The notes beneath the pieces were generated by a model. The model had not been told where the DNA came from, did not search any database, and worked only from the letters and a program-made list of their open reading frames with translations. Shown here in pieces: positions 16,373 through 59,012 of a stretch of DNA of 64,000 nt. This DNA is from Eledone cirrhosa. Lineage: Eukaryota. The first letter of the stretch is position 1; each line of letters begins with the position of its first letter. The stretch is taken from positions 340,256,001 to 340,320,000 of the forward strand of contig OZ024743.1 of NCBI GenBank assembly GCA_964016885.1, read 5' to 3'. The position numbers and the translations under genes were made by a program.

Positions 16373-16430
16373 CGTACGTACGTATGTATGTATGTATGTA
16401 TGTATGTATGTATGTATGTATGTATGTATG

Positions 16431-17040: not shown

Positions 17041-17056
17041 TATGTATGTATGTATG

Positions 17057-17090
<34 letters not shown>

Positions 17091-17116
17091 TGTATGTATG
17101 TATGTATGTATGTATG

Positions 17117-17720
17117 TCAGGTCACCAGTTGGTGCTACTGGTAACATGTATCCCAGTACAACCTGTCTCATGGTCGGGTCGTTGGCGACTAAACTGGCAA
17201 CCCCACTAAGGTTTCTTGGTGAGGAGGGTGACTTTGGATATCCTGCAGGACTAAAAACAAAATCTGTCAAAGGTAAAAGGAGCTCTTAAGAGTCAATGGC
17301 CATCCAAAATCACCGGGAGAGATGACCCCTTAGCCTTTGTCAAGGCAGAATTCTAGGAGAAGGAAAACTCTGATATAACATCTGCAACCCTGATGGTATC
17401 CAATGATGTTGCCTTCTTTTTGGTAAATATCATCTTGGTTAAGAGAGTGGGACTGGCTTTGTGCAGTGCCTTTGCTCACTATAAAAGCTTCACGGCACAG
17501 GCATTGCTTTATATCTGGAGATCTCTCTGCACTTGTCGTCACATGGTACCATGGGCCCAGCACTATGTGTCAATAATTGTCACAAGTGTAGTGTTTGTAC
17601 CAGAGTTTTCAAGTCACAGGCTGGACTAAAAAGTCACACTTGTTCAGCGCCTCGGTAGGGGTTCTCCTACATGGATATAAAGTAGTGGCCGTACTCGAAA
17701 ACGAGTTGGCAGCCACCATG
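17117..17720 (+). mobile_element. Non-autonomous RTE-derived element, copy 2 (direct repeat of copy 1)
   Basis: Near-identical to 16431-17040 with the same first and last nucleotides; separated from it by (TATG)n. Confidence 0.75.
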
Positions 17721-18014
17721 TTTGTATGTATATGTTATATATGTATGTATACGCGTGTCTGTGTTTGCGTATATGTGTATAAAACAAAAATCCAATTCGA
17801 AAGCAATTATTATAAATTGTATGACAATATTGAGCAACTGTCTAATTCTTTTCTTTCTTTATTTATCATATTTATATATAGATCTATTTATATATATGTC
17901 TTCTTCTCTGGTTTCCATCCACATATTTTACATGCTGTCATGTATTTCTATTTTCATATTTCACACACTACAGTTTTCCTTAAATATGGACTTTTTCTCT
18001 GCTTTCTTTTCTCA

Positions 18015-18070
18015 ACCTACCTCCCTACCTACCTACCTACCTACCTACCTATCTATCTATCTATCTATCT
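18015..18070. repeat. (TACC)n/(TATC)n microsatellite at the 5' junction of Tx1 copy A
   Basis: Read directly. Confidence 0.9.
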
Positions 18071-18101
18071 CTGGGATGGACACACGCGTATAACTTGCTG
18101 A

Positions 18102-18168
18102 GTAAGTTCTGTTTAAATTTCTATAGAAATTCTTGTCTGATAACTTTAATTTTTGTACCATTTTGTAG
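18102..18168 (+). other. Putative 67-nt spliceosomal intron in copy A 5'UTR
   Basis: GTAAGT ... AT-rich ... TTTTGTAG; equivalent segments in copies E, F and G. Confidence 0.55.
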
Positions 18169-18286
18169 AGAGACTGCCAGGTCAAACTTTGATCTGGTCG
18201 GTCTCTCAAAATATTCTACGCCTTTAGGCGAAATAGTTAAACAAAAAAAAAGTTTTTTCTTGTTGAAAAGTCAATATTTTTTTTAA

Positions 18287-20078
18287 ATGGCCGAAGCTTC
18301 TTCACCAAAATTCGAAGGAGGAAAGGGGAAGATGAACTTACAGCTTCCCCCCTGCCACTGTCACAGTAGCAGAGGTCAAGAAGAAAGGTCAGCCAGAGGA
18401 AGAATTCTCTCCACCTGTTAACCGACAACTTGACGTTGCCATGGCAACAACCCAAAGAACCAGCAGCAACAGCAACAACAACAATCCAACGGACGAAAAC
18501 AACACCAATAACAATAACAATAACAACAACAAGACCAATAACGGTGACAACAACAACAATGATAACAACAACACCACCAACGACAACAACAACACAAACA
18601 AACAAAATTTCTCCTTCGCCGAGACGACAAGGAAAACCCTCGACTATCTGCCAGTAGATATAACCAAAGCGAAGGAGCTACTGGCGGATGCGAAAAAATA
18701 TATAGTGTACGGAGAAAATGGTTCATTCACAATCCATTCCCCCCCCCGGAACTAAAAAGCCAGAGACTCCTAAACACGGTCATGTTTAGGACAATCTCGA
18801 ACAAAAGTAAAAAACCAGCTCAACCATCACAGAGCGAGATAGAGCTGGTTTTAAAAGACGTCATGAAGGACATCACCTTCATTCAGAAGGATAGACTCTA
18901 CGGGAGTCTATCCATTCTCATGAAGGACAGGGACACAGCAGTGAAACTGTCCATCAAACCAATCACATCCACCGCATACACCTTCTACCCTACGTACATG
19001 GGTAGAAGAACACAAAAAATAAAAATCCACACCATCCTGCCGATTATGGACATATGGTGGGTTTTGACAGGTTTTCTGGACCTGGAGGATGACATGCTGG
19101 TGTCCATGGGAAAGGCATCGGGTGACGCGTTCAGTGGAACGAGCCTCGAACTTGTAGTTCAAATGAGGCCCGAAAGGATCGCCCAGATCCCTGAACGCGT
19201 CATACTGGATGATCTAACCTTCATCAACATTACCGTTGAGGGTAGACGGCCCTCGTGTTACCTCTGCGGAACCAGAGGTCACCTGAGGGCTGTCTGTCCC
19301 CAACTTAATAAGAAAACCCCAATCCTGCCTACACCACCAACAACTGCACAACCAACACAATCACCACAACTACCACTACATAAACAACCACCACAGCTCA
19401 AACCAAAACAAAACAATGTCCAACCCATCCCCTCCACTCAAAAAACAAAAACAATTTCCAAAACACCCGTACCGCAAACACAACCCGAAAATATACCCCT
19501 CCCCTCCAACGCGGAAGACGACCCTAGTTCGTCGTCAGACGAGGAGGAGCACTTCCACACAATCAAAAGAAAAAAAAGAAAACACACCTCAGACACACAA
19601 ATGAAAACAACCCCTCCCCAAAACATAACACTGACACCAACACAAAAGAGCTCACAACAACAGCAAACAAAAAACACCACACAAAAACAAAAACATGCAT
19701 ACACATACATAAACACAAGAAACAAAAAACTGTTAAACATTGTGTACAACAACAATCTAATAAAAACACAAGGGCCTAACTTCACCCAGGCAGGGGATTT
19801 CCCCCACCTCAAAATGATTAAGGCCCCACAGGACACCTATAAAACTTTAAAAAACAATTTTAAAGAGGACGTGGGTCCCCCCTGCGTCGGGCCCATTAAC
19901 CGCGTCCTCCTAAAAAAACTATCCCACCCCCTCCCCAAACACCCACACAACTCCAAGCTCCCCAACCACACAACACACTGATGCCCCTACACTTCCACAA
20001 ACCACCACCCCACCCAACAACCCATCCCCCACCCTAATGGAAATTGTGTAGCCCGATACCCGGGACGCAGAGAGGTAA
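18287..20078 (+). pseudogene. Copy A ORF1 (gag-like, Asn-rich N-terminus, CX2CX4HX4C knuckle), frameshifted
   Basis: CYLCGTRGHLRAVC; ORF pieces 18441-18755 and 18782-19981; C-terminal TTTPPNNPS..MEIV*PDTRDAER* is homologous to the copy D ORF1 end. Confidence 0.85.
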
Positions 20079-20102
20079 GTGCCTTTTCTCTTCACCACCA
20101 AC

Positions 20103-23100
20103 ATGGCTATGCTAAGAGTAGGCTGTTTAAATGCGCGTGGCCTGGGCTCAACTTGGAAGCAAGCAATGCTTCTAAATGACCTCAGGTCACAACGTATAGA
20201 TGTGATGGTTATTTGCGAGGCCCGGATCAGCAACGTGCGACAGCTGGCCCCCACCTTTGATGACTTTGAGATGCACGCATCTCTCTGTCAGCCCGGAGGT
20301 GGGGGTGGAGTTGTCGTTCTGCTGCAAAAACATCTGGGTCTCGCAACACAGATGGTACATTTGGACCCGGAGGGTCGACTAGTGGTTCTGGACCTTGGCA
20401 GTGGTAAAGGCGGAGCGTTTAGGTTGGTAGCCGCCTACGGCCCTTTCGGGTCAATGCGGCCGGACTTCTTCCATCGTCTGGAGACTTTTCTAGGGACGTC
20501 CCGCTCCTTGCTATTAGTGGGGGACTGGAATGGTATCCTAGATGCACGCTGGGACTACGTAGGGGCCTGTCCCGATAGAGAGGGGTGTAATAGCCTCAAA
20601 GGGTTAATCGGTCGATTTGACCTGGCCGATAGATATCGACTAGATTTTCCGACTGCGCCAACCTGGACTTGGGCAAATCGTAGCGGAACATCTAGGTCGT
20701 ACCTAGATAGGTTCTTAGTTAGAATTAAGGATAAGGACTTTTTAAGTTGTCCAAAAATGCGCATGGTTGGCTATTCAGACCACAAATTAGTGACCTGCAT
20801 GGTCAACCTTGACAGAACTCATAGACAGGGACCCGGTTACTGGAAGCTCAACTTGTCCTTACCGGCAAGTAAGGCTTACAGGAACCGGATTAGCACTTTA
20901 GTTAAGGAGCGGTTGACGGGCGCCATCGTCAACAGCAGGTGGTGGGGATCTCTCAAAAGAGAGATTAGAGTAGTCTCTATAGAATTTAGTAAGGAGTTAG
21001 CCTCCAATAGAAATAGGAAGGAAAGGGAGTTGGTAGATAGTGTAGAAGAGGCAATTAGAAGCGGCGACGTGGCCAGAGTGCTAGCGTCGAGAACGGCCCT
21101 GGGCCAGTTCTTCGACGCGAAACACGAAGGCTGCATCGTCCGAAGCAAAATACGTGCTCTGGGAAACGAGGGGACCAAAGCTGTTAGCTGGGCCCGCGTG
21201 ACAGAAGCCAAAAGAGGGAGCAGATCCACTATCCGGTCTTTGCGAGACCAGGATGGACGGGTGATCCTTGAACCTAAGCAGATGTGCGAGGCTTTTCAAA
21301 AGCACTTTGCCGAATTGTTCGGAAGGGGCGGGGGGCCGGTTGGGGACGTGGACTTCGGTCCATACCTCGACGGCCTGCCGCGTCTCTCGGACAGGGAGGC
21401 GAAGTCCTGCGAGGAGCCGATTTCAGCCGCTGAGATAGAGGACGTGCTGAGCCAATGCGGCAAACGGAAATCCCCGGGTCTCGATGGTCTTCCTTACGAA
21501 TTATATCTAGCTATGCCGGACTTGTTCCCCGATCTCATCGAGGCGGTCTACTGCAACTGGCAACAGAACGGGAGAATTCCCTGTACTGTGACCAAGGGCG
21601 TAGTCACGCTAGTGAGGAAGGACGAGAACAAGGGGGACGAAATAAGTAACTTCAGGCCCATAACTCTGCTAAATACAGAGTTACAGATTTTGGCCAAGGT
21701 GCTAGCAAAGAGGTTGGCGCTTGTCGTGGGCAACCTGGTGGGAGATGCGCAGACATGTGCTATCCCGTCCAGGTCCATCCATGACAACCTCCACCTCATG
21801 CGATACATCATAGAGAGGGTTGGGAACGAACCCGGCTTTGGTGGGGCTCTGATCAACTTGGATCAATCTAAGGCGTTCGATAGAGTCGACCATGGTTACC
21901 TGGATGCGGTGCTAGCGGCGGCAGGCTTCGGACCCGTTTTCAGGGGCTGGATCACTGCTATGCACAGCAGCCGCATCTGCTCTAGGGTCAAGGTGAACGG
22001 CTACCTCTCGGAGCCGTTCAAAATCGCGCGGTCAAGGGTGCCCTCTCTCCTCCCTTCTGTATTTGTTGACTCTCGAGCCACTACTGCGGAAGTTGGAGTT
22101 GTTGCAGGGCATCCCTTTGGAACCGGGATTGCGGAAAGCGGTGTCAGCCTACGCCGATGACGTGACAGTAATGGTGTCGACGGCCTCCGAAATCGAGGCG
22201 GTCGGCACCTTACTGGAGGAGTACGAAAAGTTCACAGGGGCTAAGCTGAACCGGGACAAGTCGATCGGTTTGCAACTCGGCACGTGGAGGGGCAGACCGA
22301 TGCCCTCCGATGGCGTCGTCGGACGCTGGACGGAGGGCCCGGTGAAGTTGCTCGGGGTCTGGTTCGGACCGAACCTCCAGGTGGAGAAAAACTGGGCGGA
22401 GGTTACGAACAGGGTGTTTGCACTGACCCAGAAGTGGGCCAGTTGCAAACTATCCCTGAAAGGTCGGGCGGAGGTGGCGAACACTTATATAGCGTCCGTC
22501 ATCTACTACCGCCTGACCGTAGTGCCCTGCCCAAGGGAAACCCTCACCAAGATGGAGCGCGCACTCTTCCAATTCCTTTGGAAGAGGCGGGCTCCTATGG
22601 TGAGGAGATCCATCTGCTGTCAACACCCTTCGAAAGGAGGGCTGGGGATGCCGTAGCTAATGGTGCGTAAACACGCATTAAGGCTACGGCACCTCTACGT
22701 ATTCCTCACCGGACAACCGGTGTGGGCCTCGTTTGTGAGACGAACCTTTCCCAGACTCGTCTCACTCACCGAGCTGCAATCCTGGGTCAAGCAAAGACCG
22801 AGAAAACTGGGCGCCTGGCACACTGAGTGTGCCCAGGCGCTCACCGCCCTCTGGCAGGCGGATCCGGTTATCAGTGGAGACTCCACCGCAACATTCTATA
22901 GAGGGCTGGTACGCAGCAGGTGCGACGACGCCCTCGGAGAAGCCCTAGACATGGAGGAGGACGAACTGGCCAGCCTGTTCGGTAGGACATTCATCCCGGG
23001 ACCTATGGACAACTTCCAGAAGTCCCTGGCCTGGCAGTGCTACCGAGCGGCTTTACCCGTTCGAGAAAGGCTCTACAGACACGGGCGCCCGGGTAGGGAC

Positions 23101-23532
23101 CCCGCCAAAAAGATCTGTCCCAGATGCGTGTGCGACGAGGAAACCGTTGCACACGCATTGGTACACTGCTCGGGCGTAGCCGATCTGTGGGGCTATGCCG
23201 AACAACTGCTGTCAAGGGTGGGACCGTTCCGGTTGACCACCGAGTCTGTTGTAATGATCAAGCCGCCTCCCCCCTTCAAAGATGAAGCAGAGGCGGTGTT
23301 TCTGTGCGTAATAGCCATGGCGAAAGAGGTTGTATGGTGGACGCGTCTGAAAGGACTGAGGTCAGGCACCTTTCTCTCTGGCCAACAACTGGTCCGTTTC
23401 TTCCGATATCATTTCGGAAGAAGGATCAGGATGGAGAGAGAGGTGCTGCACCCCAGTCGTTTTTATGAAAGGTGGGTGAAAGTGGCGAGAATGGCCCGTG
23501 TGAATGGGCCTTCTCTTTACATAAGCCTGTAG
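20103..23532 (+). pseudogene. Copy A ORF2 (APE endonuclease + RT + C-terminal Cys/His finger), one frameshift and one nonsense
   Basis: NARGL, ICE, GDWN, YLD, SDH; KSPGLDG, NFRPITLLN, LDQSKAFDRV, YADD; CPRC..ETVAH..C. Small deletion near 22033 and TAG at 22654-22656. Confidence 0.95.
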
Positions 23533-23780
23533 GTGGAAAAGAGGAAGGAACGAGGGAGCACCCCCTCTCTGTGCTCCTGAGGAAAAGGGGGTGTGTGTGC
23601 GACCCCCCAAGGCGCCTCCTCTCTATTGAGGATTTTGTTATAAATTTTATTTTTTGTTATATCTTATTTTATTTTTATATTTTGTTATTGCCTCCTCCTT
23701 ATTGAGGACGCCTTTTTGTGTAAACTCCCCCCTTTGTACTTGTCCCACTTTTGATGCCCTAGTGGCAAATAAAAGAAACA

Positions 23781-24088
23781 TATCTATCTATCTATTTATC
23801 TACCTACCTACCTCACTCTCTACCTATCTATTTATCTACCTACCTCACCGTCTACCTATCTATTTATCTACCTACCTATCTATTTATCTACCTACCTACC
23901 TACCTATCTATTTATCTACCTATCTATTTATCTACCTACCTCACCGTCTACCTATCTATTTATCTACCTACCTATCTATTTATCTACCTCCCTACCTACC
24001 TACCTACCTACCTACCTACCTACCTACCTATCTATTTATTTACCTACCTACCTACCTACCTACCTACCTACCTACCTACCTACCTACC
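23781..24088. repeat. (TATC/TACC)n tract between copies A and B
   Basis: Read directly. Confidence 0.95.
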
Positions 24089-26678
24089 TGACAGAAGCCA
24101 AAAGAGGGAGCAGATCCACTATCCGGTCTTTGCGAGACCAGGATGGACAGGTGATCCTTGAACCTAATCAGATGTGCGAGGCTTTTCAAAAGCACTTTGC
24201 CGGATTGTTCGGAAGGGGCGGGAAGCCGGTTGGGGATGTGGACTTCGGTCCATATCCTGACGGCCTGCCGCGTCTCTCGGACAGGGAGGCGAAGTCCTGC
24301 GAGGAGCCGATTTCAGCCGCTGAGATAGAGGACGTGCTGAGCCAATGCGGCAAACGCAAATCCCCGAGTCTCGATGGTCTTCCATACGAACTATATCTAG
24401 CTATGCCGGACTTGTTCCCCGATCTCCTTGAGGCGGTCTACTGCAACTGGCAACAGAACGGGAGACTTCCCTGTGCTGTGACCAAGGGCGTAGTCACGCT
24501 AGTGAGGAAGGACGAGAACAAGGGGGACGAAATAAATAATTTCAGGCCCATAACTCTGCTAAATACAGAGTTACAGATTTTGGCCAAGGTGCTAGCAAAG
24601 AGGTTGGCGCTTGTCGTGGGTAATCTGGTGGGAGATGCGCAGACATGTGCTATCCCGTCCAGGTCCATCCACGACAACCTCCACCTCATGCGATACATCA
24701 TAGAGAGGGTTGGGAACGAACCCGGCTTTGGTGGGACCCTGATCAACTTGGATCAATCTAAGGCATTCGATAGGGTTGACCATGGTTACCTGGATGCGGT
24801 GCTAGCGGCGGTAGGCTTCGGACCCGTTTTCAGGGGCTGGATCAATGCCATGCACAGCAGCCGCATCTGCTCTAGGGTCAAGGTGAACGGCTACCTCTCG
24901 GAGCCGTTCGAAATCGCGCGGTCCATCCAACAGGGGTGCCCTCTCTCCTCCCTTCTGTATGTAATGACTAGAGCCACTGCTGCGGAAGTTGGAGTTGTTG
25001 CAGGGCATCCCGTTGGGACCGGGATTGCGGAAAGCGGTGTCAGCCTACGCCGATGACGTAACAGTAATGGTGTCGACGGCCTCGGAAATCGGGGCGATCG
25101 GCACCTTACTGGAGAAGTACGAAAGATTTACAGGGGCTAAGCTGAACCGGGACAAATCGATCGGTCTGCAACTCGTCACGTGGAGGGGCAGATCGATGCC
25201 CTCCGATGGCGTCGTCGGGCGCTGGACGGAGGGCCCGGTGAAGTTGCCCGGGGTCTGGTTCGGACCAGACCTCCAGGTGGAGAAGAACTGGGGTGAGGTA
25301 ACGAACAGGGTGTTTGCACTGACCCAGAAGTGGGCCGAGTGCAAACTGTCCCTGAAAGGTCGGGCGGAGGTGGCGAACATTTATATAGCGTCCGTCATCT
25401 ACTACCGCCTGACCGTTGTGACTTGCCCAAGGGAAACGCTCGCCAAAATGGAGCGCGCACTCTTCCAATTCCTTTGGAAGAAGCGGGCTCCTATGGTGAG
25501 GAGATCCATCTGCTGTCAACACCCTTCGAAAGGAGGGCTGGGGATGTGTAAACACGCATTAAGGCTACGGTACCTTCACGTATTCCTCTCCGGTCAACCG
25601 GTGTGGGCCCCGTTTGTGAGGCGAGCCTTTCCCAGACTCGTCTCACTCACCGAGCTGCAATCCTGGGTCAAGCAAAGACCGAGAAAACTGGGCGCCTGGC
25701 ACACCGAGTGTGCCCAGGCGCTCACGGCTCTCTGGCAGGCGGACCCGGCTGTCAGTGGAGAATCCACCTCGTCATTCTATAGAGGGCTGGTGGTTAGCAG
25801 GTGCGACGACGCCCTCGGAGAAGCCCTAGGCATGGAGGAAGACGAACTGGCAAACCTGTTCGGTAGGACATTCAGCCCGGGACCCATGGACAACTTCCAG
25901 AAGTCCCTGGCCTGGCAGTGCTACAGAAGGGCTCTGCCCGTTCGAGAAAGGCTCTACAGACACGGGCGCCCGGGTAGGGACCCCTCGAAAAAGATCTGTC
26001 CCAGATGCGTGTGCGACGAGGAAACCGTTGCACACACATTGGTACACTGCTCGGGCATTGCCGATCTGTGGGGCTATGTCGAACAACTGCTGTCAAGGGT
26101 GGGACCGATCCGGTTGACCACCGAGTCTATTGTAACGATCAAGCCGCCTCCCCTCTTCAAAAACGAAGAAGAGGCGGTGTTTCTGTGCGTAATAGCCATG
26201 GCGAAATAGGTTGTATGGTGGACGCGTCTGAAAGGACTGAGGTCAGACACCTTTCTCTCTGGCCAGCAACTGGTCCGTTTCTTCCGATATCATTTCGGAA
26301 GAAGGATCAGGATGGAGAGAGAGGTGCTGCGCCCCAGCCGTTTTTATGAAAGATGGGTGAAAGTGGCGAGAATGGCCCGTGTGAATGGGCCTTCACTCTA
26401 CATCAGACTATAGGTGAGGAAGATGAAAGACCAAGGGAGCACCCCTTCTCTGTGCGCCTGAGGAAAAGGGTTGCACACTTTTTTTCGTGGGTGTGTGCGA
26501 CCCCCCAAGGCGCCTCCTCTCTATTGAGGACTTTGTTATAAATTTTATTTTTTGTTATATTTTATTTTATTTTTATATATTGTTATTGCCTCCTCCTTAT
26601 TGAGGACGCCTTGTTTTGTAAACTCCCCCAATTGTACTTGTCCCACTTTTGATGCCCTGGTGGCAAATAAAAGAAACA
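24089..26678 (+). mobile_element. Tx1 copy B, 5'-truncated (no EN), same subfamily as A
   Basis: Begins at the equivalent of 21199 in A; RT ORFs 24130-25056 and 24989-26209; same 3'UTR; followed by (TATC)-like repeat. Confidence 0.93.
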
Positions 26679-26738: not shown

Positions 26739-28935
26739 GCTGTTAGCTGGGCCGGAGTGACGGAGGCGAAAAGTGGCAACAAGTCCACGATTCGATCTTT
26801 GAAGGACCAAGACCGACGCGTGATAAGTGAGCCGAAGCAGATGTGCGCGGCCTTTCAGCGGCACTTTGCTCAACTGTTCGGGCAAGGTGGCGCGCCGGGA
26901 GGGGCTATGGATTTCGGTCCATACTTCGACGGCCTACCGCGACTCTCGGACAGCGAGGCGAAGTTTTGCGAAAGGCCGATTTTGACCGCTGAAATAGGGG
27001 ACGCGCTGAGCAAATGCGGAAAACGCAAATCTCCAGGTCTCGACGGTCTACTCTACGAATTTTGCGTAGCAGTGCCGGACTTGTTCTCCGGTCTCCTGGA
27101 AGCGGTCTACAGAAACTGGCAGCAGAACGGGAGAATTCCCAGTTCTGTGACCAAGGGCGTAGTCACGTTAGTCAGGAAGGACGAGAATAAGAGGGATGAC
27201 ATAGGCAATTTCCGGCCCATAACTCTGCTCAACACAGAGTTACAGATTTTGGCCAAGGTGTTGGCAAAGAGGCTGGCGCTTGTCGTCGAAAACCTGGTGG
27301 GAGAAGCGCAGACATGCGCAATCCCGACCAGGTCCATACACGACAACCTCCGCCTCATGCGATACATCATAGAGAGAGTAGGGTGTAAACCAAGCTTCGG
27401 TTGGGCCCTGATCAACTTGGATCAGTCTAAGGCTTTCGTTACCTGGATGCGGTGCTCGAGGCGGCAGGCTTCGGACCCGTGTTCAGGGGCTGGTTTGCTG
27501 CAATGCACAGCAGCAACATCTGCTCAATGGTCAAGGTGAACGGCTACCTCTGGGAGCCGTTCCATATCACGCGATCCATCCGACAGGGATGCCCTCTCTC
27601 CTCCCTTCTGTATGTACTGCCTCACGAGCCACTACTGCGGAAGTTGGAGCTATTGCAGGGCATCCTTTTGGAACCGGGACTGCGAAAAGCGGCGTCCGCC
27701 TACGCCGACGACGTGACAGTAATGGTGTCGAGCACCTCACAAATCGGAGATCGAATACGAAAGGTTCACAGGAACGAAGCTGAACCAGGACAAATCCGTC
27801 GGTTTGAAACTCGGAACGTGGCGAGGCAAACCGATGCCTTCCGATGGCGTCGTCGGATGCTGGACGGAAGGACCGGTAAAGGTGGAGAAGAACTGGAACG
27901 AGGTGACGGCCAAGGTGTTTGCGCTCACCCAGAAGTGGGCCGAGTGCAAACTATCCTTGAAAGGTCGAGCGGAGGTGGCGAACACTTTTATAGCGTCCGT
28001 CATTTACTACCGCTTGACCGTTGTGCCTTGTCCAGCCAAATCGCTCACCAAAATGGTGCGCGCGCTCTTCCAATTCCTTTGGAAGAAACGGGCTCCTTTG
28101 GTGAGAAGATCTATCTGCTGCCAACATCCTTCAAACCGAGGGCTGGGGATGCCGTGACTGACGATGCGCAAACACGCACTCAGGCTGCGGCACCTCCACG
28201 TATTCCTCACCGCACAACCGGTGTGGGCCCCGTCTGTGAGGCGAGCGTTCCCACGACTCGTCTCGCTGACCGAGCTGCAGACCTGGGTCAAGCAAAGACC
28301 GAGGAAAATGGACGACTGGCACATCGAATGTGCTCAGGCGCTCACTGTCCTGTGGGAAACGGACCCGGCGATCAGTGGAGACTCCACGTCGACATTCTAT
28401 TCAGGGCTGGTCCGCAGCAAGTGCGACGACGCGCTCGGAGAAACTCTAGGCGTAGAGGAAGACCTTCCGCCCGGGACCAATGGACAACTTCCAAAAGTCC
28501 CTGGCCTGGCAGTGCTACTGAGGAGCTCTACCAGTTCGAGACAAGCTCAACAGACACGGGCGCCCGGGCAGGAACCCTTCGAAAAAGATCTGTCCGAGAT
28601 GCGTGCGTGACAGGGAAACCGACGCGCACGCATTTGTACACTGCCCGAGCGTTACCAACCTGTGGGGCTATGTAGAACGACTATTGTTGCGGGTGGGACC
28701 AATCCAGTTGACCACCGAGTCCATTGTCATGATCAAACAGCCACCCTCCTTCAAAAAGGAGGAAGAGGCGGTTTTCCTATGTGTTACGGTTATGGTGAAA
28801 GAGGTTATATGGTGGACGAGGTTAAAAGGGCTGAGGTCAGACACCTTTCTCTCCGGCGATCAACTGATTCGTTTTTCTCAAATATCATTTTGGAAGAAGA
28901 ATCAGGATGGAGAGAGAGGTAATGTACCCGAGCAA
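26739..28935 (+). mobile_element. Tx1 copy C, 5'-truncated, 3' end deleted; subfamily of D
   Basis: Begins at the equivalent of 21180 in A; RT fragments with several short deletions; fused to copy D at CAAAATTT (28933-28940). Confidence 0.9.
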
Positions 28936-31900
28936 AATTTCTACCGGAATTTTGAATATAGCCAAAATGGCCAAATTCTTTGACCTCATCTTCACAAAAA
29001 ACACATCAGAGAATTGTAGAGATGGGCTGTCAATATCACCTTCCACAGCACTAGTAACAGGTGAAGGCTGTCTGCCTGCTGCTATCACCAACAACAGCAA
29101 CAGCAACAACAACAGCAACAAAAACAACAACATCAAATCTGTCAGCCAACAATTAGACAGAGGTGGTGGAGGGACGGTAAAACTGTCAAGCCAAGAAGCA
29201 GCTCGCACCGCCTCGTTGAAACACTTCGATATGTTTAAAACCCACCCTGACAACAACACCAGCACCACCAACACGAAAACTGTGAATGGCACAAACCAAA
29301 ACAACGCCATCAACAACAACAGTGACAACGAGAACAAGAAGAACAACAACGACAACAAAACCACAACCAACAACAACAAAAACAACACCAACAACGGAAA
29401 AAACGAAAACAACATCAACAATAAGAACAATAATAACAACAACAAGACCAATAACTGCAACAAGGAAGTAAACGACAAAATTTCATTTGCGCAAACCGTA
29501 AAGAAAACGGTAAGCTACACTTCGGTAGATATTTCAAATGCAAATGAGCTTTTGAATAACGCCAGACAATATGTAACTTTTGGGGAGAACGGATCATTCT
29601 CCATAAACTCTCCCCCAGATTTGCGAAGAGAAGCTGCCTTGAAAACTGTGATTTTCAGGACAATCTCAAATAAAACACGAAAACCGACGCAACTTTCACA
29701 AGGCGAAATTGAGTTGGCTTTAAAAAATACATTAAAAGACATTGCTTTTATTCAGAAGGAAGGGAAGTTTATCCATTCTAATGAAAGACCAATTGACGGC
29801 GCATAAATATTCTGTGTCGCCAATTGTGTCACCGCTGTTCACTCTTTTCCCCACTTACATGTGGAAAAAGACACAGAAAATAAAAATCCAAAGTATCACA
29901 CCAAATATTGACATTTGGTGGGTACTATGTGGATTTTTAAACCACGAAATAGACTATATAATATCGGTAGGTAAGACCTCTGGCGACCTGTTCAGCGGAA
30001 CTAGCCTGGAAGTTCTGGTCCAAATGACACCAGAACGAATAGCTAGGATCCTGGAACCTGTGTTGCTGGATGGGCTTATATACATAAACATTTCGGTCGA
30101 GGGTAGGCGGCCCTCATGTTACCACTGCTCAAGCAGGGGTCACCTGAGAGCTTCCTGTCCTCGGCTAACTAGACAAAAAAAGGCACTACTGCCAACACCT
30201 GCAACACCAGCACAACAATCACCACCACCACCACCACAACAACAACAACATAAAAAAATAGTGACAACAAAATAAATTACAAACACAGTGCCACCCAATC
30301 CTCCCCACCTAAAACAACTCCAGAAACACCCACACACATAACAGCTCGCCAAAACGTACCCCTCCCCAACAACACGGATGAGGCCTCATCATCGTCACCC
30401 AGTGACGATGAGGGAGAGACTTTCCGACCAGTAAAAAGAAAAAAGAAAAGACATAACACAAACAAAATTGCAACAAACACACAAATACCCACACAAGCGA
30501 TGCAAACAGCACAAACAGAAACACCCCCTCCTGAAAACAAAACACCTACTACAAAACGTAAACACACACAAGAACCACAGACAAAAAGCAACCCAACACA
30601 ACAAAAATGTTACACCTACATAAATACTAACAATAAAACTTTAAAAGACACCATATATAAAAACCCTTCAGTGGAGACCGAAGGGAAAACTTTTACACAC
30701 TCTTCGGAGAATCCTAATCTTAAAATGATTAGGACCTCCATGGACACACATAAACAGTTAAAAGAAAAATTTCCTAACGACGTAGGTAACCCCTGCGTCA
30801 AACCCTACAATCGAGTCTTGTTAAAATGTTTCCCCACCCCCACCCCCATCCCACCAGACACCTCCTCCCCACCAAACATCTCTGTCCCCTTCCCTCCAGA
30901 GACCACCACCCCACCAAACAACCCCTCCAACACCCCCATGGAAATTGTGCAGCCTGGTCCCCAGGAGACGAAGAGGTGAGTGATTTCTTTTCCTCTTCTG
31001 TTAACTTTTCAGCACCAACATGGCCAATATAAGAGTTGGATGTGTGAATGTACGCGGCCTGGGAATGCCCTGGAAACAGGGCAAACTCTTAAACGATCGC
31101 AGGTCGCACAGCATGGATGTAGTAGCAATTTGCGAGTCTAGGATCCACAGCGAGCGACAACTGGCCCCCATCTTCGACGACTTTGAGATCTACGCATCTC
31201 TGTCAGCCGGGAGGTGAGGGTGGGGTTGCCGTTTTGCTGCGGAAACACCTGGACCTCGTAACACCGACGGTACATCTGGACCCGGAGGGTCGACTGGTGG
31301 TCCTAGACGTTGACGGTAGTGAAGGTGGAGCCTTCAGACTGGTGGCCGCATATTCCCCATCCGGGACACCGCGGCCAGACTTCTTCAAACGTCTAGAGAC
31401 TTTTCTGGGAACGTCCCGCTCCCTGCTGTTAGTGGGGGACTGGAATGGAATCCTAGATGCAAGTTGGGACTATGTGGGAGCATGTCCCGATATAGGGGGT
31501 GTAACAGCCTCAAACAGTTATTCGGCCGATTTCAACTGGCCGATTGATATCGACTAGATTTTCCGACTGTGCCACTGTGGACGTGGACTAACCGCAGCGG
31601 AACATCTAGATCGAACCTAGATAGGGTTCTAGTTAGAAAGAAGGATAGGGACATGTTAAGCTGCCCACAAATGTTCATGGTTGCCTATTCAGATCACAAA
31701 TTAGTGACCTGCTTAGTCAACCTTGACAAAACCCATAGACAGGGACCCAGCTACTGGAAGCTGAACTTGTCGTTACCGACATGCAAAGCCTACAGTAGAC
31801 GGATTAGCACTTTAGTTAAGCAGCACTTGACGGGGGCCATTGTCAACTCTCTCAAGAGGGCAGTTAGATTAGACTCGATAGGTTTTAGTAAAGAATTAGT

Positions 31901-34597
31901 GTTAGATAGAAATAAGACCGAAAAGGAACTGGTAGATAAAGTAGAAGAGGCACTTAGGAGTGGCAACGTAGCCAGCGTGCTAGCGACGAGAACGTTCTTC
32001 AACGCAAAGCATGAAGGCTGCGTTGTCAGAAGCAAAATACGTGGTCTGGGAAACGAGGGAGCCAAAGCTGTTAGCTGGGCCCGAGTGACGGATGCGAAAA
32101 GTGGCAACAAGTCCACGATTCGGTCTTTGAAGGACCAAGACGGACGCGTGATACGTGAGCCGAAGCAAATGTGAGCGGCCTTTCAGCGGCACTTTGCTCA
32201 ACTGTTCGGGCAGGGCGGCGCGCCAGGAGGGGCTATGGATTTCGGTTCATACCTCGACGGCCTACCGCGACTCTCGGACAGCGAGGCGAAGTTCTGCGAA
32301 AGGCCGATTTTGGCCGCTGAGATAGGGCACGCGCTGAGCCAATGCGGCAAACGCAAATCTCCAGGTCTCGACGGTCTACCCTACGAATTTTACGTAGCAA
32401 TGCCGGACTTGTTCTCCGGTCTCCTGGAATCGGTCTACAGAAACTGGCAGCAGAACGAGAGAATTCCCAGTTCTGTGACCAAGGGCGTAATCACGTTAGT
32501 CAGGAAGGACGAGAACAAGGGGGATGACATAGGCAACTTCCGGCTCATAACTCTGCTCAACACAGAGTTACAGATTTTGGCCAAGGTGTTGGCAAAGAGG
32601 CTGGCGCTTGTCGTCGAAAACCTGGTGGGAGAAGCGCAGACATGCGCAATCTCGACCAGGTCCATACACGACAACCTCCACCTCATGCGATACATCATAG
32701 AGAGAGTAGGGTGTAAACCCGGCTTCGGTGGGGCCCTGATCAACTTGGATCAGTCTAAGGCTTTCGATAGGGTTGACCATCGTTACCTGGATGCGGTGCT
32801 CGAGGCGCCAGGTTTCAGTCCCGTGTTCAGCGGATGGATGCTGCAATGCACAACAGCAACAATGCTCAAGGGTTAAGGTGAACGGCTACCTCTCGGAGCC
32901 GTTCCATATCACGCGATCCATCCGACAGGGATGCCCTCTCTCCTCCCTTCTGTACGTACTGACTCTCGAGCCACTACTGCGGAAGTTGGAGCTACTGCAG
33001 GGCATCCCTTTGGAACCGGGACTGCGAAAAGCGGCGTCGGCCTACGCCGACGACGTGACAGTAATGGTGTCGAGCACCTCGCAAATTGGGGAGATCGGCA
33101 CCTTACTGGAGGAATACGAAAGGTTCACAGGAACGAAGCTGAACCGGGACAAAGCCGTCGGTTTGCAACTCGGAACGTATAGAGGCAGACCGATGCCTTC
33201 CGATGACGTCGTCGGACGCTGGACGGAAGGACCGGTAAAGCTGCACGGGGTCTGGTTTGGTCCTGACCTCCAGGTGGAGATTAACTGGAAAGAGGTGACG
33301 GCCAAGGTGTTTGCGCTCACCCAGAAGTGGGCCGAGTGCAAACTACCCTTGAAAGGTCGAGCGGAGGTGGCGAACACTTTTATAGCGTCCGTCATCTACT
33401 ACCGCTTGACCGTTGTGCCTTGTCCAGCCAAAACGCTCACCAAAACGGAGGGCGCGCTCTTCCAATTCCTTTGGAAGAAACGGGCTCCTTTGGTGAGAAG
33501 ATCCATCTTCTGACAACACCCTTCAAACGGAGGGCTGAGGATGCCGTGGCTGACAATGCGCAAACACGCGCTCAGGCTGCGGCACCTCCACGTATTCCTC
33601 ACCAGACAACCGGTGTGGGCCCCGTTCGTGAGGCGAGCCTTCCCACGACACGTCTCGCTGACCGAGCTGCAGACCTGGGTCAAGCAAAGACCGAGGGAAA
33701 TGGGCGACTAGCACATTGAATGTGCTCAGGCGCTCACAACCCTCTGGCAAACGGACCCGGTGATCAGTGGAGACTCCACTTCGACATTCTATAGAGGGTT
33801 GGTCCGCAGAAAGTGCGACGAGACGCTCGGAGAAAATCTAGGCGTAGAGGAGGACGAACTGGCCAGTCTCTTCGGTAGGACCTTCCGCCCGGGACTAATG
33901 GACAACTTCCAAAAGTCCCTGGCCTGGCAGTGCTACAGAGGAGCTCTACCAGTTCAAGACAAGCTCTACAGACACGGGCGCCCGGGTAGGGACCCTTCGA
34001 AAAAGATCTGTCCGAGATGCGTGCGTGACGAGGAAACCGTCGCACACGCATTTGTACACTGCCCGGGCGTTACCAACCTGTGGGGCTATGTAGAACGACT
34101 ATTGTTGCGGGTGGGACCAATCTAGTTGACCACCGAGTCCATTGTCATGATCAAACCGCCACCCTCCTTCAAAAACGAGGGAGAGGCAGTTTCCCTATGT
34201 GTTATGGCTATGGTGAAAGAGGTTATATGGTGGACGAGGTTAAAAGGGCTGAGGTCAGACACCTTTCTCTCCGGCGAGCAACTGATTCGTTTTTTAAAAT
34301 ATCATTTTGGAAGAAGAATCAGGATGGAGAGAGAGGTGCTGTACCCCAGCAAATTTTATAAAAGGTGGGTGAATGTGGCAAAGATGGCTCGAGGGGTTGG
34401 GCCTTCTCTCTATATAAGCCTGTAGGTTGAGGAAAAATAGGACGGGGTGTGTACAACCCCTGTGTAACACCTCACCCCTATTGGGGATTTCAATTGTTAT
34501 TTGTCACTGTATTAATGGTTTTATTTTCATACACCTGTAAGTAAACTCCCCATTTGTATTTGTCCCCTTCTTTTGTGCCCTTGTGGTATTAAAGAAA
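28936..34597 (+). mobile_element. Tx1 copy D, ORF1 + ORF2 + 3'UTR, 5'UTR mostly deleted
   Basis: ORF1 28967-30979 (CYHCSSRGHLRASC) and ORF2 31020-34425 with multiple frameshifts; ends ATTAAAGAAA then (TATC/TACC)n. Confidence 0.93.
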
Positions 34598-34806
34598 TTT
34601 ATCTATCTATCTCCCTACCTACCTACCTACCTACCTACCTACCTACCTACCTACCTACCTACCTACCTACATACCTATTATTTACATACCTACCTATCTA
34701 TCTCCCTACCTACCTACCTACCTACCTACCTACATACCTATTATTTACATACCTACCTATCTACCTACCTACCTACCTATCTATCTACCTATCTATCTAA
34801 TCTATC
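34598..34806. repeat. (TACC/TATC)n tract between copies D and E
   Basis: Read directly. Confidence 0.95.
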
Positions 34807-37800
34807 GGAATTAATCTAGCTGTCGTCTGTTCTACAGTGTGGATGTAATTCACTTCGCGCAGAAGTTTTGTTCAAATTTATTGCGGAAATTTTGTGAGTT
34901 CAAATTTAATTTTGATACTATTGTGTAGCTTGACCCCCCGTCTGAACTGTCAGGCGGTGGGTCAGCTCATCTTTACCCCTCCTAGAGGTGAAAAACCTGT
35001 TTTAAAAAATGTTATGGCAAAAAAAATTTCAATCGTCTGACAGAAATGTTAAACGAAACGAACGAAAATAGTGGTGGGGGGACAGCGGTAAGAGTTGTAA
35101 GCTCGCACGCTTTAGTCCCCCCTTCCTTCCCAACTAACGTCATAGAGAAGGAAGGAAAAAATAAAATAAAAACAGACGAATCTGCGGAGAAAAATGACGA
35201 AAACACAATTCTGGACATGGATTCCAACAACGGAAAAAAAAAAATTTGAAAAATTGCATGACAATACTAATACCACAAACAAAGACACAACAAACACAAA
35301 AATAACATTTGAAAATAACACCATAACAGAAAGCAAAGCAGACGACAGAGTCAACAAGATTTCATTTGCACAAAAAACAAAGAAATCTTTGACATATATA
35401 CCTGAAAATATTTCAGTTGTGGCACGAAAAATCACAGACGCCAAACAATACATAAGTGAAGGAGAGAATGGTATTTTATCGGTAAAAATGCCTCAAGAAC
35501 TCACCAAAGACATTGAAAGTCGAACGGTCATGTTCCGCACCATCAACAACACTTCAAAAAAACCTGAACAGCCAACTCAGGCAGATATCAAAACAGTACT
35601 CACAGAAGTACTTAATGAAACCACTTTCATAAGAAAAGACAGACTGTATGGAAGCCTAGCAATCATTATGAAGAACGAATCGGCGGCCAAAAAAATGTGC
35701 TTTGTCACCGATTCGTTCGAAAATTTTTACCTTTTATCCATCTTATATGGGTAAAAGAACTCAACGCATATGGCTGGATGCAATGATGCCAGATGTGGAC
35801 TACTGCTGGCTCATAGCTGGCTTCATCGATCCAGTGAATGACAACGTGATTTCCATTGGGAAAACCACAGGCAATGCGTTCAGTGGAACAGGTATAGAGC
35901 TGGTAGTGCAAATGAAGTCTGAACGCATCGCCCAAATACCCGACAGAATCCTATTAGAGGGCCACGGGTATATAAACATTAGCGTGGAGGGGAGAAGGCC
36001 GTCCTGTCATATCTGTGCAGGCAGAGGGCACCTGAAGGCCGCTTGTCCCCAACTCAACAAAAAGAAAACCCTGCTACCAACACCAGCTCCACCACCACCA
36101 CCTTTCAAAGGCACTTTGCCCGATTGTTCGGGGGAGGCGAGGGTCCGGGCGGGAACGTGGATTTCGGTCCATACCTCGACGGCCTGCCGCGTCTCTTGAG
36201 CGAAGAGGCAGAGTCCTGCGAGGGACCAATCTCGGCTGATGAGATCGGAGATGCGCTGAGCCAATGCAGCAGACGCAAATCTCCAGGTCTCGATGGTATA
36301 CCTTACGAACTTTATTTATCAATGCCGGTCTTCTTCTCCGAACTCCTCGAAGCGGTCTACTGCAATTGGCAGCAGAACGGGAGAATTCCTTGTTCTGTAG
36401 CCAAGGGCGTAGTCACGCTGGTGAGGAAGGACGAGAACAAGGGAGATAGTATAAATAATTTTCGGCCCATAACCCTGCTAAACACAGAGTTAAAGATTTT
36501 GGCCAAGGTGTTAGCAAAGAGGTTGGCGCTTGTCGTGGGTGGCCTGGTGGGAGATGCGCAGACATGTGCTATCCCATCCAGGACCATTCACGATAACCTC
36601 CACCTCATGCGATACATCATAGAGAGGGTTGGCAACAAACCCGGCTTCGGTGGGGCCCTGATCAACTTGGATCAGTCTAAGGCCTTCGATAGGGTCGACC
36701 ATGGTTACCTGGATGCGGTGCTAGCGGCGGCTGGGTTCGGTCCTGTTTTCAGAGGCTGGATCACTGCCTTACATAGCAACCACATCTGTTCTAGGATCAA
36801 GGTGAACGGCTACCTTTCGAAGCCGTTCGAAATCACACGATCCATTCGACAGGGGTGCCCTCTCTCCTCCCTTCTGTACGTATTGACTCTAGAGCCTTTA
36901 CTGAGGAAGTTGGAGTTGTTGCAGGGTATCCCCCTGGAACCAGGATTGAGCAAAGCGGTGTCGGCCTACGCCGATGACGTAACAGTAATGGTATCGACCG
37001 ACTCGGAGATCGAGGCGATCGGTACCTTACTGGAGGATTACGAAAGGTTGTCAGGAGCGAAACTGAACCGGGAAAAATCCATCGGGCTGCAACTCGGAAC
37101 GTGGAGAGGCAGACCGATGCCTCCCGACGGTGTCGTCGGACACTGGACGGCGGGCCCGGTATAGTTGCTTGGGGTATGGTTTGGACCGGACCTCCAGGTG
37201 GAAAAGAACTGGAACGAGGTTACGAACAAGGTGTTTGCACTAACCCAGAAACGGGCCAAGTGTAAGCTGTCCCTAAAAGGCCGGGCGGAGGTGGCGAACA
37301 TTTACATAGCGTCCGTCACTTACTACCGCCTGACTGTCGTGCCTTGCCCTAAGGAAACACTCACCACCATGGAACGCATGCTCTTCCAATTTCTTTGGAA
37401 GAAGCGCCTTCCTATGGTGAGGAGATCCATCTGCTGCCAACAACCTTCGAAAGGAGGGCTGGGGATGCCGTGGTTGATGATGCGTAGGCACGCATTAAGG
37501 CTACGGCACCTACAGGTATTCCTCACTGGTCAACCGGTGTGGGCTCCGTTCGTGAAACGAGCCTTTCCGAGACTCGTCTCGCTCACCGAGCTACAGTCCT
37601 GGGTCAAGCAAAGATCCGGAAAACTGGGAGACTGGCACACTGAGTGTGCTCAGGCGCTCAGGGCTCTCTGGCAAGCGGGCCAGGCCATCGGTGGAGAATC
37701 CACCTCATCATTCTATAGAGGGCTGGTGGCTAGCAGGGGCGATGACACCCTTGGAAAGTCGCTGGACATGGAAGAAGACGAACTGGCCAGCCTGTTCGGT

Positions 37801-38418
37801 AGGACTTTCGGCCCAGGATCAATGGACAACTTCCAGAAGTCACTGGCCTGGCAGTGCTACCGAGGGGCTCTACCCGTTCGAGAGAGGCTCTACAGACACG
37901 GGCGCCCGGGCAGGGATCCCTCAAAAAAGATTTGCCCTAGATGCGTGCGTCACGAAGAAACCGTTGCGCACGCATTGGTGCAATGTCCGGGCGTGGCTGA
38001 TCTGTGGGGCTACGCCGAACGACTGCTGTCGCGGGTGGCGCCGATTCAATTGACCGCCGAGTCCGTGATGACAATCAAACCGCCTCCCCTCTTCACAAAA
38101 GAAGCAAAGGCGGTTTTTCTGTGCGTAATAGCCATGTTGAAAGAGGTTGTTTGGTGGACACGATTGAAAGGTCTGAGGTCAGGCAACTTCCTCTCTGGCC
38201 ATAGTCTGGTCTACTTCTTCCGATATCACTTCGGAAGAAGGATAAGAATGGAGAGAGAGGTGCTTGGCCACAGGCAGTTTTATGAAAGGTGGGTGATAGT
38301 GGCGAGAATGGCTCGTGTAAATGGGCCTTCTCTGTATACCATCCTGTAGGTAAAGAAGTAAAGGAGAGGGGAGCACCTTCTCCATGTGCTCCCCGGGCAA
38401 AGGATTGCACACTTTTTC
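34807..38418 (+). mobile_element. Tx1 copy E: 5'UTR + ORF1 N-part (35014-36100) joined to EN-less ORF2 (36101-38349)
   Basis: CHICAGRGHLKAAC knuckle, then an abrupt switch to FQRHFARLF..RT..YADD..CPRC; 3'UTR cut at the junction to copy F. Confidence 0.9.
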
Positions 38419-39679
38419 GCGCTGGTGAGTAAATGTTTTAATTTCATTGGAAACTGCATGAACTGAATCTACATTCTTACACCATTTTGTAGATAAGCTG
38501 CCACCCTACACTTTGTAGGTGGTACCAACCCCAAATAATAAGCCCATCAGGGCGAAAAACGGAGAAATCCCACAAAATTTCTACCGGAATTTTGAATATA
38601 GCCAAAATGGCTAAATTCTTTGACCTCATCTTAACATGTGTCGCCAATTGTGTCACCGCTGTTCACCTTTTTCCCCACATACATGGGGAAAAGAACACAG
38701 AAAATAAAAATCCAAAGTATCACACCAAATATTGACATTTGGTGGGTACTATGTGAATTTTTAAACCACGAAACAGACTATATAATATCGGTAGGTAAGT
38801 CCTCCGGCGACCTGTTCAGCGGAACTAGCCTGTCCAAATGACACCAGAACGAATAGCTTGGATCCCGGAACCTGTGTTTCTGGATGGGCTTATATACATA
38901 AACATTTTGGTCGAGGGTAGGCGGCCCTCATGTTACCACTGCTCAAGCAGGGGTCACCTGAGAGCTTCCTGTCCTCGGCTAACTAGCCCCCAAAAAGGCA
39001 CTACTGCCAACACCTGCAACACCAGCACAACAATCACCACCACCACCACAAAATAGTGACAACAAAACAAACGACAAACACAGTCCCACCGAACCACTCC
39101 CCACCTAAAACAACTCCAGAAACACCCACACACATAACAGCTCCCCAAAATGTACCTGTCCCCAACAACACGGATGAGGCCTCATCATCGTCACCCAGTG
39201 AGGATGAGGGAGAGACTTTCCGACCAGTAAAAAGAAAAAAGAAAAGACATAACACAAACAAAAAGGCAACAAACACACAAACACCAACACAAGCGACGCA
39301 AACAGCACAAACAGAAACACCCCCTCCTGAAAACAAAACAACTACTACAAAACGTAAACACACACAAGAACCACAGACAAAAAGCAACCCAACACAACAA
39401 AAAATGTTACACCTACATAAATACTAACAATAAAACTTTAAAAGACACCATATATAAAAACCCTTCGGTGGAGACCGAAGGGAAAACTTTTACACACTCT
39501 TCGGAGAATCCTAATCTTAAAATGATTAGGACCTCCATGGACACACATAAACAGTTAAAAGAAAAATTTCCTAACGATGTAGGTAACCCCTGCGTCAAAC
39601 CCTACAATCGAGTCCTTCCTGTTAAACTCCCATTTGCATTTGTCCCCTTTCTTTTGTGCCCTTGTGGCTAATAAAGAAA
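38419..39679 (+). mobile_element. Tx1 copy F: internally deleted D-subfamily derivative (5'UTR + part of ORF1 + 3' terminus, no ORF2)
   Basis: Matches D 28933-28992, then 29813-30818, then the last ~60 nt of the D 3'UTR; AATAAAGAAA then TATC. Confidence 0.88.
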
Positions 39680-39703
39680 TTTATCTATCAATCTCGCACT
39701 CAC

Positions 39704-58370: not shown

Positions 58371-58966
58371 GAATGCCATGGTTGACGGAGGCTCGGCTCT
58401 GTAAGGTATAGTAATTTTTAACCGCTATAACAATTGTAAATTGTTTAAAACTTTAACCAAATTGTAGATAAAAACACCCTCCTCCTCGTGAAAGGGGTCT
58501 TTCTGCCCGTTATTTGGCCCTTCAGGGTTAAATAATCGCTTATTGGGGTTTTGTGCCCAATATTCGTTTTAAACCCCAAAAAAACATGGCTACAAAAAAG
58601 AATTTTCACAAGTCACTCACACTCATTCCGTCTTCTTCTTCCTCAATCGTCACTACATCAGAGAGAAGATTGTCTCTCTCCCTCCCTTCTCTAAATGTGT
58701 CTCTCTCCCTCCCTTCTCTTTCGCAAGCGACGCCAGTAAAGAAAAAGAAAAATATAGTTTCTGATAATTTCCAAGAGCACGTGCAAACCGAGGAACATTT
58801 CTCCACGACGACGACAACGACGAAAAATGTGTGCGGTAAATACGGAAAGCCATTTCATTCGTCTGACGTCATGAATAATAGCAGTAGCAGCCGTATTAAC
58901 AGCAGCAGCAGCAACAGTGACAAGGAAAACAACAGTAGCAACCGCAATAGCATCAGCAGCAGCATA

Positions 58967-59012
<46 letters not shown>

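Follow-up and report, generated by a model that had tools for sequence, protein, structure and literature searches.

A U1-type splice donor motif at the ORF1 stop of Tx1-like LINEs from Eledone cirrhosa and the possible removal of ORF2 as an intron

INTRODUCTION

Long interspersed nuclear elements (LINEs) are taken as unspliced bicistronic RNAs. Here, we describe a LINE with two open reading frames (ORFs) in a 64,000-nucleotide stretch of Eledone cirrhosa DNA (assembly GCA_964016885.1, contig OZ024743.1, positions 340,256,001 to 340,320,000, forward strand; hereafter the window), in which a match to the 5' splice site covers the ORF1 stop codon. Among elements with long terminal repeats (LTRs), Drosophila copia has an intron of ~3 kb whose removal gives a Gag-only RNA (PMC5580714). 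Introns are also known in transcripts of L1, Tad, and others, their importance not being established (PMC1636488), and the splicing described for human L1 damages the element (PMC5860796). In Octopus vulgaris, L1-Tx1 families have been recently active (PMC13282606). A literature search by title and opening of the abstract, which did not cover subscription journals, Repbase Reports, or supplements, returned no LINE in which a donor is conserved at the ORF1 stop or ORF2 is removed as an intron.

A first-pass annotation of the window had proposed that ORF2 is one whole intron, with its TAG stop codon as the acceptor. Our analysis partly supports this interpretation and moves its weight from the acceptor to the donor. 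The donor ranks first in three window elements and in three of four representatives of a distant clade, whereas the acceptor at the ORF2 stop is unsupported in distant relatives.

RESULTS AND DISCUSSION

Splice donor match at the ORF1 stop

The window is animal DNA rich in microsatellites. Between 18.0 and 39.7 kb, it holds six copies of the LINE (A to F) on the same strand, partly set apart by (ACCT/ATCT)n tracts. A more distantly related seventh copy (G) begins at ~58.4 kb and leaves the window at its end. Decay was seen in every copy. The features around the donor are as follows.

18070..23780, + strand: element A, a full-length, decayed LINE of the Tx1/L1 type with 5' untranslated region (UTR), ORF1, spacer, ORF2, and 3'UTR; ends approximate (self-BLAST, sequence, and Pfam)
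18288..20078, + strand: ORF1 of A, with a CCHC knuckle, frameshifts, and one internal nonsense codon; terminus Arg-stop
20073..20080, + strand: 5' splice-site match AG/GTAAGT over the ORF1 stop of A; top U1 match of 286 GT sites
20081..20102, + strand: spacer between the ORFs of A, pyrimidine-rich and without AG
20103..23532, + strand: ORF2 of A, with endonuclease, reverse transcriptase (RT), and a C-terminal Cys/His region; frameshift near 22030 and stop at 22654-22656
28933..34600, + strand: element D, near full length and decayed; ORF2 at 31020-34425
30974..30981, + strand: 5' splice-site match AG/GTGAGT over the ORF1 stop of D; top U1 match of 272
30982..31019, + strand: spacer of D, pyrimidine-rich; a strong acceptor-like CAG ends at 31012
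58380..64000, + strand: element G, with ~70% DNA identity to A in ORF2; leaves the window; ORF2 start at 60732
60692..60699, + strand: 5' splice-site match AG/GTAAGT over the ORF1 stop of G; top U1 match of 275

In all three window subfamilies, ORF1 ends in AG/GTAAGT (A and G) or AG/GTGAGT (D), where the slash marks the splice boundary and the stop codon lies inside the motif. When every GT site of an element was scored by duplex energy against the 5' end of U1 small nuclear RNA (snRNA), taken from locus L042, this site was the best match in each of the three. Given a stop codon, the chance of AGG-TRA-GT is 1-3 x 10^-4 per element. A, D, and G are related, yet only 23 of 61 fourfold sites (38%) are common to them, and the flanking ORF1 tail of G differs. 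Each of the three spacers has a pyrimidine tract after the donor. Across six representative elements, GTRAGT occurs 5 times in the 170 nt between ORF1 stop and ORF2 start, with 0.08 expected, versus 5 times in 32,356 nt of ORF bodies.

Other donor-like and acceptor-like sites were also seen. GTRAGT lies early in the 5'UTR of A (18102), at the junction of E and F (38425), at L008:3780, and in many copies of the main clade described below, which suggests a putative third donor near the 5' end. The 5'UTR of some subfamilies has acceptor-like tracts in its later part. The CAG in the spacer of D sits 8 nt before the ORF2 ATG, where A has CAC at a similar position and G has no AG; together with a 5'UTR donor, this CAG could yield an ORF2-only RNA. 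Strong donor-like sites inside ORF2 were found in G at 61005 (273 nt into ORF2, rank 2/275) and at L001:6217 (216 nt into ORF2, rank 2/393), the latter in a family without the ORF1-stop donor.

Recurrence of the donor in distant relatives

Prokaryotic genome records scanned with an ORF2 alignment gave 43 loci, 41 of which (L001-L040 and L043) came from one metagenome-assembled genome (MAG) record, CAXXMW01. An initial scan of genomes with the C-terminal part of ORF2 gave 59 pattern matches, none confirmed. The CAXXMW01 loci are head-to-tail arrays of mostly intact LINEs with ~40% ORF2 identity to the window family, at least 51 copies on 16 contigs; the tandem array is unusual, and 5' regions are swapped. 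They are likely animal DNA inside a record titled as a bacterial MAG. L041, whose ORF ends early, apparently through a frameshift, was excluded from the end counts. In trees of 14 and 16 rows, containing no named Tx1 or L1 reference, the window family grouped with protein P0001, and their sister lineages were the L001 family and the main clade, each a supported clade. Long, supported branches separate the window clade from the main clade.

In the main clade, G/GTAAGT begins no more than 2 nt after the ORF1 stop in 54 of 54 distinct cases, always 5' of the ORF2 ATG. This site ranks first in L008 (1/370), L027 (1/353), and the partial element L017 (1/190) and third in L032 (3/404). Because it lies after the ORF1 stop, the motif has been kept though it no longer forms the stop codon. 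The main-clade copies are close relatives, with 83% mean column identity in a 3'UTR alignment, so the evidence comes to two lineages with the donor and two without. Within the wider clade of window family, L001 family, and main clade, the donor recurs in two of three lineages, and acceptor-like sites lie at or after the end of ORF2.

Acceptor candidates at the end of ORF2

The window features that bear on the acceptor are as follows.

23511..23534, + strand: candidate acceptor TAG/GT at the ORF2 stop of A; a competing AAG ends at 23525
23533..23780, + strand: 3'UTR of A, with one AATAAA, at 23768
24089..26675, + strand: copy B, 5'-truncated, with 93% identity to A; a CAG ends at 26406
34800..38430, + strand: copy E, with the 5' part of ORF1 fused near 36102/36103 to mid-ORF2

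The ORF2 end of G lies outside the window, and the acceptor counts rest on A, B, D, and E. ORF2 stops in TAG followed by GT in all four, at 23532 (A), 26413 (B), 34425 (D), and 38349 (E), preceded by CTG in A, D, and E and by CTA in B, exactly as first annotated. All four copies therefore have YAG followed by G, as at the 3' end of U2-type introns. Among the 24 YAG sites common to these copies over ~2.3 kb, the ORF2-stop site ranks first by a small margin (mean of 13.0 versus 12.75 pyrimidines). Conservation of TAG/GT across A, D, and E does not exceed drift, since these three agree at 53 of 98 fourfold sites (54%), and 12 of the 38 UTR columns next after the stop are identical in all four copies. 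A further AG lies 7 nt upstream of the TAG in A (AAG), B (CAG), and D (AAG), where it supplies the opening two bases of a Ser or Arg codon. Only in E is the TAG the first AG after the tract, which makes the ORF2 stop of E the cleanest acceptor-like end of the window. A join at the upstream AG would, by phase, end the ORF1 protein (ORF1p) at ORF2's own stop.

Computed joins of the ORF1-end AG to the ORF2-stop acceptor regain the Arg codon, as had been claimed, followed by an immediate stop with the 3'UTRs of B and E. These immediate stops arise only across copies, because B has no ORF1 and the ORF1 end of E is deleted. Of the two halves of the intron idea, the donor is strong and the ORF2-stop acceptor weak. 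The ORF2 stop codon may still serve as acceptor in the window lineage alone; the exact junction first proposed there, from the ORF1-end donor to the ORF2-stop TAG, is unlikely.

As a general acceptor, the ORF2 stop codon did not hold up. Among 51 distinct ORF2 ends of the relatives, 44 have TAG followed by G and 7 have TAA. The tract before TAG/G is weak (11/19 pyrimidines in L008 and L027, the two representatives scored), the TAG sits within a short inverted repeat, and in one subfamily (5 copies) TAG has become TCG and ORF2 extends to a TAA. Distant TAA ends, a poor tract, and the absence of retro-copies had been named beforehand as findings that would refute the acceptor; each was encountered among the loci examined, whereas the recurrence of TAG/G in 44 of 51 ends agrees with the prediction. 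The position of the ORF2 stop is not fixed, because the relatives' C termini reach 0-17 residues beyond the shared terminal motif; the end of P0001 coincides with that of the window copies.

In the distant clades, the end of ORF2 carries a predicted donor, and good candidate acceptors lie 50-260 nt into the 3'UTR. GTRAGT is found at -3 to +41 of the ORF2 stop in all 51 ends and ranks first or second in four representatives. Its position +3 alternates between A and G only, positions -3 to -1 are variable, and a U-rich tract comes next. The strong 3'UTR acceptor candidates rank first of 220 YAG sites in L032 (+239), first of 187 in L001 (+184), and tied first of 167 in L027 (+253); L008 has them at +51 and +264. 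In 8 aligned UTRs, the acceptor tract is variable and the TAG invariant. These sites lie ~145 nt (L001) and 240-250 nt (main clade) past the second donor. In both distant clades, AATAAA occurs twice past ORF2, near +440 and +690-730. The 3'UTR is 175-250 nt long in the window versus ~700 nt in the relatives; no homology was detected between window and main-clade 3'UTRs, and the only match was one of 30 nt between D and L001.

Proposed removal of ORF2 as an intron

We propose that the ORF1-stop donor is used to splice ORF2 out as one long intron in the manner of copia, with a lineage-specific acceptor, a reading that we find plausible while stopping short of calling it probable. U1 would bind at the donor, and a short ORF1-only mRNA would be made beside the unspliced genomic RNA, raising the level of ORF1p relative to the ORF2 protein (ORF2p). 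The window lineage would use as acceptor either the TAG of the ORF2 stop or the AG lying 7 nt before it, and the distant clades would use a strong 3'UTR site. Removal of ORF2 is favored because the donor lies at or after the last ORF1 codon and always before the ORF2 ATG, because ORF2 has few poly(A) signals, and because good candidate acceptors lie just past ORF2. In the main clade, splicing would leave ORF1p unchanged, since the donor lies just after the ORF1 stop. General rules on intron processing, namely, the 50-nt rule of nonsense-mediated decay (NMD), competition between AGs, and minimum intron sizes, are applied here, and the spliced main-clade junction would be too near the ORF1 stop for NMD. 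The absence of spliced copies in the genome would be explained by the fact that an ORF1-only RNA supplies no ORF2p in cis.

A fuller version is more speculative. In a clade of Tx1-like LINEs with a copia-like strategy, ORF2 would be a facultative intron whose removal gives an NMD-immune ORF1-only mRNA, and the second donor would compete for the acceptor or hold U1 on the unspliced RNA. Splicing would then set the ORF1p:ORF2p ratio and part the mRNA from the retrotransposition template, and in the window lineage the acceptor would have moved onto the ORF2 stop.

If ORF2 is indeed spliced out, an ORF1-stop donor across a deep clade would be another way for LINEs to obtain the excess of ORF1p that they require, a convergence with copia-type LTR elements, and a direct way to ORF1-only derivatives. 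Even without splicing, U1 sites at ORF stops would be a cis-element undescribed in these LINEs within the literature searched.

Evidence against the splicing of ORF2

Several results weigh against the proposed splicing. A pyrimidine-rich stretch does precede the ORF2 stop, with 12-14 pyrimidines in 19 nt in the four window copies, but synonymous recoding predicts 11.6-13.1 (P 0.27-0.67), so that the encoded peptide is enough to account for the tract. The caveat that it overlaps codons was thus borne out, and the tract was not counted as independent evidence for the acceptor. Plain joins within A and D, the only elements holding both sites, leave tails of 31 and 37 amino acids (aa), the former as annotated. 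The second donor at the relatives' ORF2 stop is not needed for the removal of ORF2. No ORF1-stop donor is present in the L001 family (2/2 copies), where the best nearby GT ranks 51/393, or in the remote L042 (29% identity), where it ranks 100/302.

GTRAGT occurs 3 times inside the ORFs versus 7.3 by codon shuffling (P 0.054, not significant), and its depletion was dropped as evidence. Arg is the C-terminal residue of ORF1 in 1 of 29 homologues with a long C-terminal part and was ruled out as a general feature; 25 of 148 matches, with several knuckles, were excluded from this count, and many others were fragments. A donor-compatible C-terminal peptide is found in 2 of 7 homologues with a complete C-terminal domain (background, 9.5%).

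The predicted junction was found neither in the window nor at any of the 54 main-clade ORF1 stops, none of which is joined to a 3'UTR; the loci were chosen for ORF2, a bias against such copies, so that ORF1-only copies could show only as neighbors. None of the 51 UTRs of the relatives (4 of which end at locus edges) lacks the stretch between the second donor and the acceptor. The internal deletions of E and F in the window have junctions away from the predicted splice sites; in F, the junction lacks GT/AG ends and falls ~160 nt before the donor. E and F were therefore ruled out as spliced retro-copies, their junctions being at neither donor nor acceptor. Among 7009 candidates, a search with an ORF1 alignment for transcript-derived proteins with a spliced tail matched P0016 itself and nothing else. 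The protein searches, which reached almost no close relatives, gave no ORF1 whose tail is encoded by a UTR.

Alternative explanations

The main rival is that U1 small nuclear ribonucleoprotein binds these sites and splicing is rare. U1 would control cleavage and polyadenylation or the nuclear handling of an intronless 6-kb transcript, for example, by favoring the distal poly(A) site and keeping the 3' tail for reverse transcription. This fits the donor-like hexamers at both stops, and often early in the 5'UTR, of the main clade, the paired AATAAA sites in relatives of both distant clades, and the U/C-rich tract after the donor in the window spacers and the relatives' 3'UTRs. It also suits the second donor and the absence of spliced copies better than splicing does, and U1 is described as blocking premature termination of unspliced EVD RNA (PMC5580714). 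However, the ORF1 donor is followed by an ORF2 almost free of poly(A) hexamers: AATAAA and ATTAAA are absent from ORF2 of A, D, L008, L001, and L027 and occur once in G, and therefore little lies downstream for U1 to suppress. Strong acceptor candidates at normal intron distances past the second donor also speak against it, and we rate U1 binding with rare splicing as somewhat unlikely.

A second alternative concerns the window lineage. Here, TAG/GT at the ORF2 stop would not be an acceptor; it would either correspond, in weak form, to the second donor of the relatives or mark where a 3'UTR intron was lost, and splicing from the ORF1 donor would go elsewhere, to the next element or a host exon. 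The constant GTRAGT near the relatives' ORF2 stops and the shorter window 3'UTRs agree with this, as does copy B, where the GT directly 3' of the ORF2 stop is donor match no. 2 of 148. However, no donor near the stop ranks higher than 25 in A, 18 in D, or 15 in E; the site ranks 7/76 among shared GT sites but 1/24 among shared YAG sites; and apart from the 30-nt match of D and L001, no homology was detected between window and main-clade 3'UTRs. We consider this explanation improbable.

It could also be that none of the motifs has a role in RNA processing and that all were inherited or arose by coincidence from stop codons and short spacers. The window sites overlap stop codons, the closely related main-clade copies leave two or three independent lineages rather than dozens, and the L001 and L042 families do without the ORF1 donor. 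Such an origin is nevertheless a slim prospect given that the motif is retained outside the stop codon in a clade at ~40% ORF2 identity, that the site ranks first among hundreds, and that +3 of the second donor toggles between A and G only while -3 to -1 vary.

Finally, in the window lineage the spacer could be spliced out as a mini-intron, giving an in-frame fusion of ORF1 with ORF2. A length of 37-42 nt is very short for a spliceosomal intron. In all three subfamilies the first AG after the donor is in frame, at 42 nt in A, 37 nt in D (also 58), and 52 nt in G; by number of pyrimidines, the CAG in the spacer of D is among the three best of 363 AG sites; and introns of 53-66 nt occur in TART antisense RNA (PMC1636488). 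This is very improbable, because A and G use one and the same Arg codon, so that their sites are not independent, because no fusion is possible in the main clade, where the donor lies after the ORF1 stop, and because a fused RNA should retrotranspose in cis, whereas the 10 close matches among proteins of 691-2000 aa are all at most 1155 aa long.

Classification and other features of the window

ORF2 encodes an APE-type endonuclease followed by RT, which fits an L1/Tx1-type non-LTR retrotransposon. Pfam matched PF03372 (E 1.5e-08) and PF00078 (E 2.4e-10) in ORF2 of A and PF13966 (zf-RVT) in the C-terminal part of E. ORF1 is separate; in A and D it matches zf-CCHC weakly, short of the curated cut-off, and homologues have an equal layout. 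No LTRs were found, some copies are 5'-truncated, and the 3' end lies in a simple repeat, all as in non-LTR elements. The label Tx1, rather than L1 clade, is our assumption from the architecture and the microsatellite association. The sole named relative of ORF1 is a gene model of Argonauta hians (29% identity); a protein search with ORF1 of A alone gave no match among 3633 candidates, and phage and plasmid collections gave no match. The remaining features of the array are as follows.

18015..18067, strand not applicable: (ACCT/ATCT)n microsatellite preceding A; also after A (23781-24089), B (26679-26737), and D (34603-34799)
26739..28932, + strand: copy C, truncated at both ends and without the ORF2 stop
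38431..39695, + strand: copy F, a D-type 5'UTR and part of ORF1 fused to the final ~70 nt of the 3'UTR; junction 39614/39623

The 3' ends of A, B, D, and F continue into ATCT/ACCT repeats, and the (ACCT/ATCT)n microsatellite is likely the target of these LINEs. Copy F is an ORF1-only-like deletion derivative of a D-type element. The remote element L042:3036-10137 (CBDHHR010000099.1) is L1/Tx1-like, with ORF1 at 3410-4924 and ORF2 at 4933-8421, and is flanked by two U1 snRNA genes (3036-3199 and 9961-10137); its family possibly targets U1 gene repeats.

Elsewhere in the window, a second retroelement family has ORFs at 13246-16193 (- strand), 9386-9883, and 57864-58424 (- strand), with related fragments at ~2.0-3.5 kb and 7.5-9.0 kb. 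A dispersed repeat of ~190 bp (87-95% identity) lies at 1301-1492, 6862-7055, 10559-10747, 54683-54865, and 57073-57267, with partial copies near 49.1-49.5 kb; it has no tRNA or Rfam match, and the whole window holds no tRNA genes and no Rfam matches. A ~720-bp tandem duplication (95%; 16375-17099 / 17061-17780) lies just upstream of the LINE array, and a ~420-bp inverted repeat (98%) lies at 45021-45439 / 45621-46047.

Comparison with known systems

The Tx1 clade, including the microsatellite-targeting Kibi and Koshi, resembles the present element in its two ORFs, endonuclease and RT, zinc-knuckle ORF1, and insertion next to microsatellites (PMC4494074). It differs in that conserved splice sites are not described in the portions of that report cited here, and the repeat in our case is (ACCT/ATCT)n. 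Human L1 likewise has donors and acceptors in LINE RNA, and its spliced RNAs can retrotranspose, as in spliced integrated retrotransposed elements (SpIREs); the events cited here fall in the 5'UTR or between 5'UTR and ORF1 and cripple the element, unlike an ORF1-stop donor that would remove ORF2 (PMC5860796).

HAL1 (PMC5753468) and the ORF1-only telomeric elements of Drosophila (PMC13534243) consist of ORF1 and a 3' tail without ORF2 and have arisen repeatedly; copy F may be compared with them. They are genomic elements, and the word stem "splic" is absent from the main text of PMC13534243. Among the copies examined here, no ORF1-only copy at the predicted junction was found: 0 of 54 main-clade ORF1 stops join a 3' tail at a defined junction, and F is a single deletion elsewhere.

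The systems with demonstrated spliced RNAs, copia and plant Ty1/Copia shGAG, are LTR elements with a single gag-pol ORF (PMC5580714). The present element is non-LTR, its ORF1 has its own stop, and splicing is proposed from sequence; it can only work alike, not belong to that class. Where the structural ORF ends, the window family and the main clade have a conserved U1 site that L001 and L042 lack. With copia and shGAG, the element shares a U1-type donor at the end of the structural ORF and, if spliced as proposed, an RNA for the structural protein alone (PMC5580714). The likeness extends to the ~3-kb intron of Drosophila copia, which ends near the 3' end of the element, and to EVD, in which U1 also blocks premature termination (PMC5580714).

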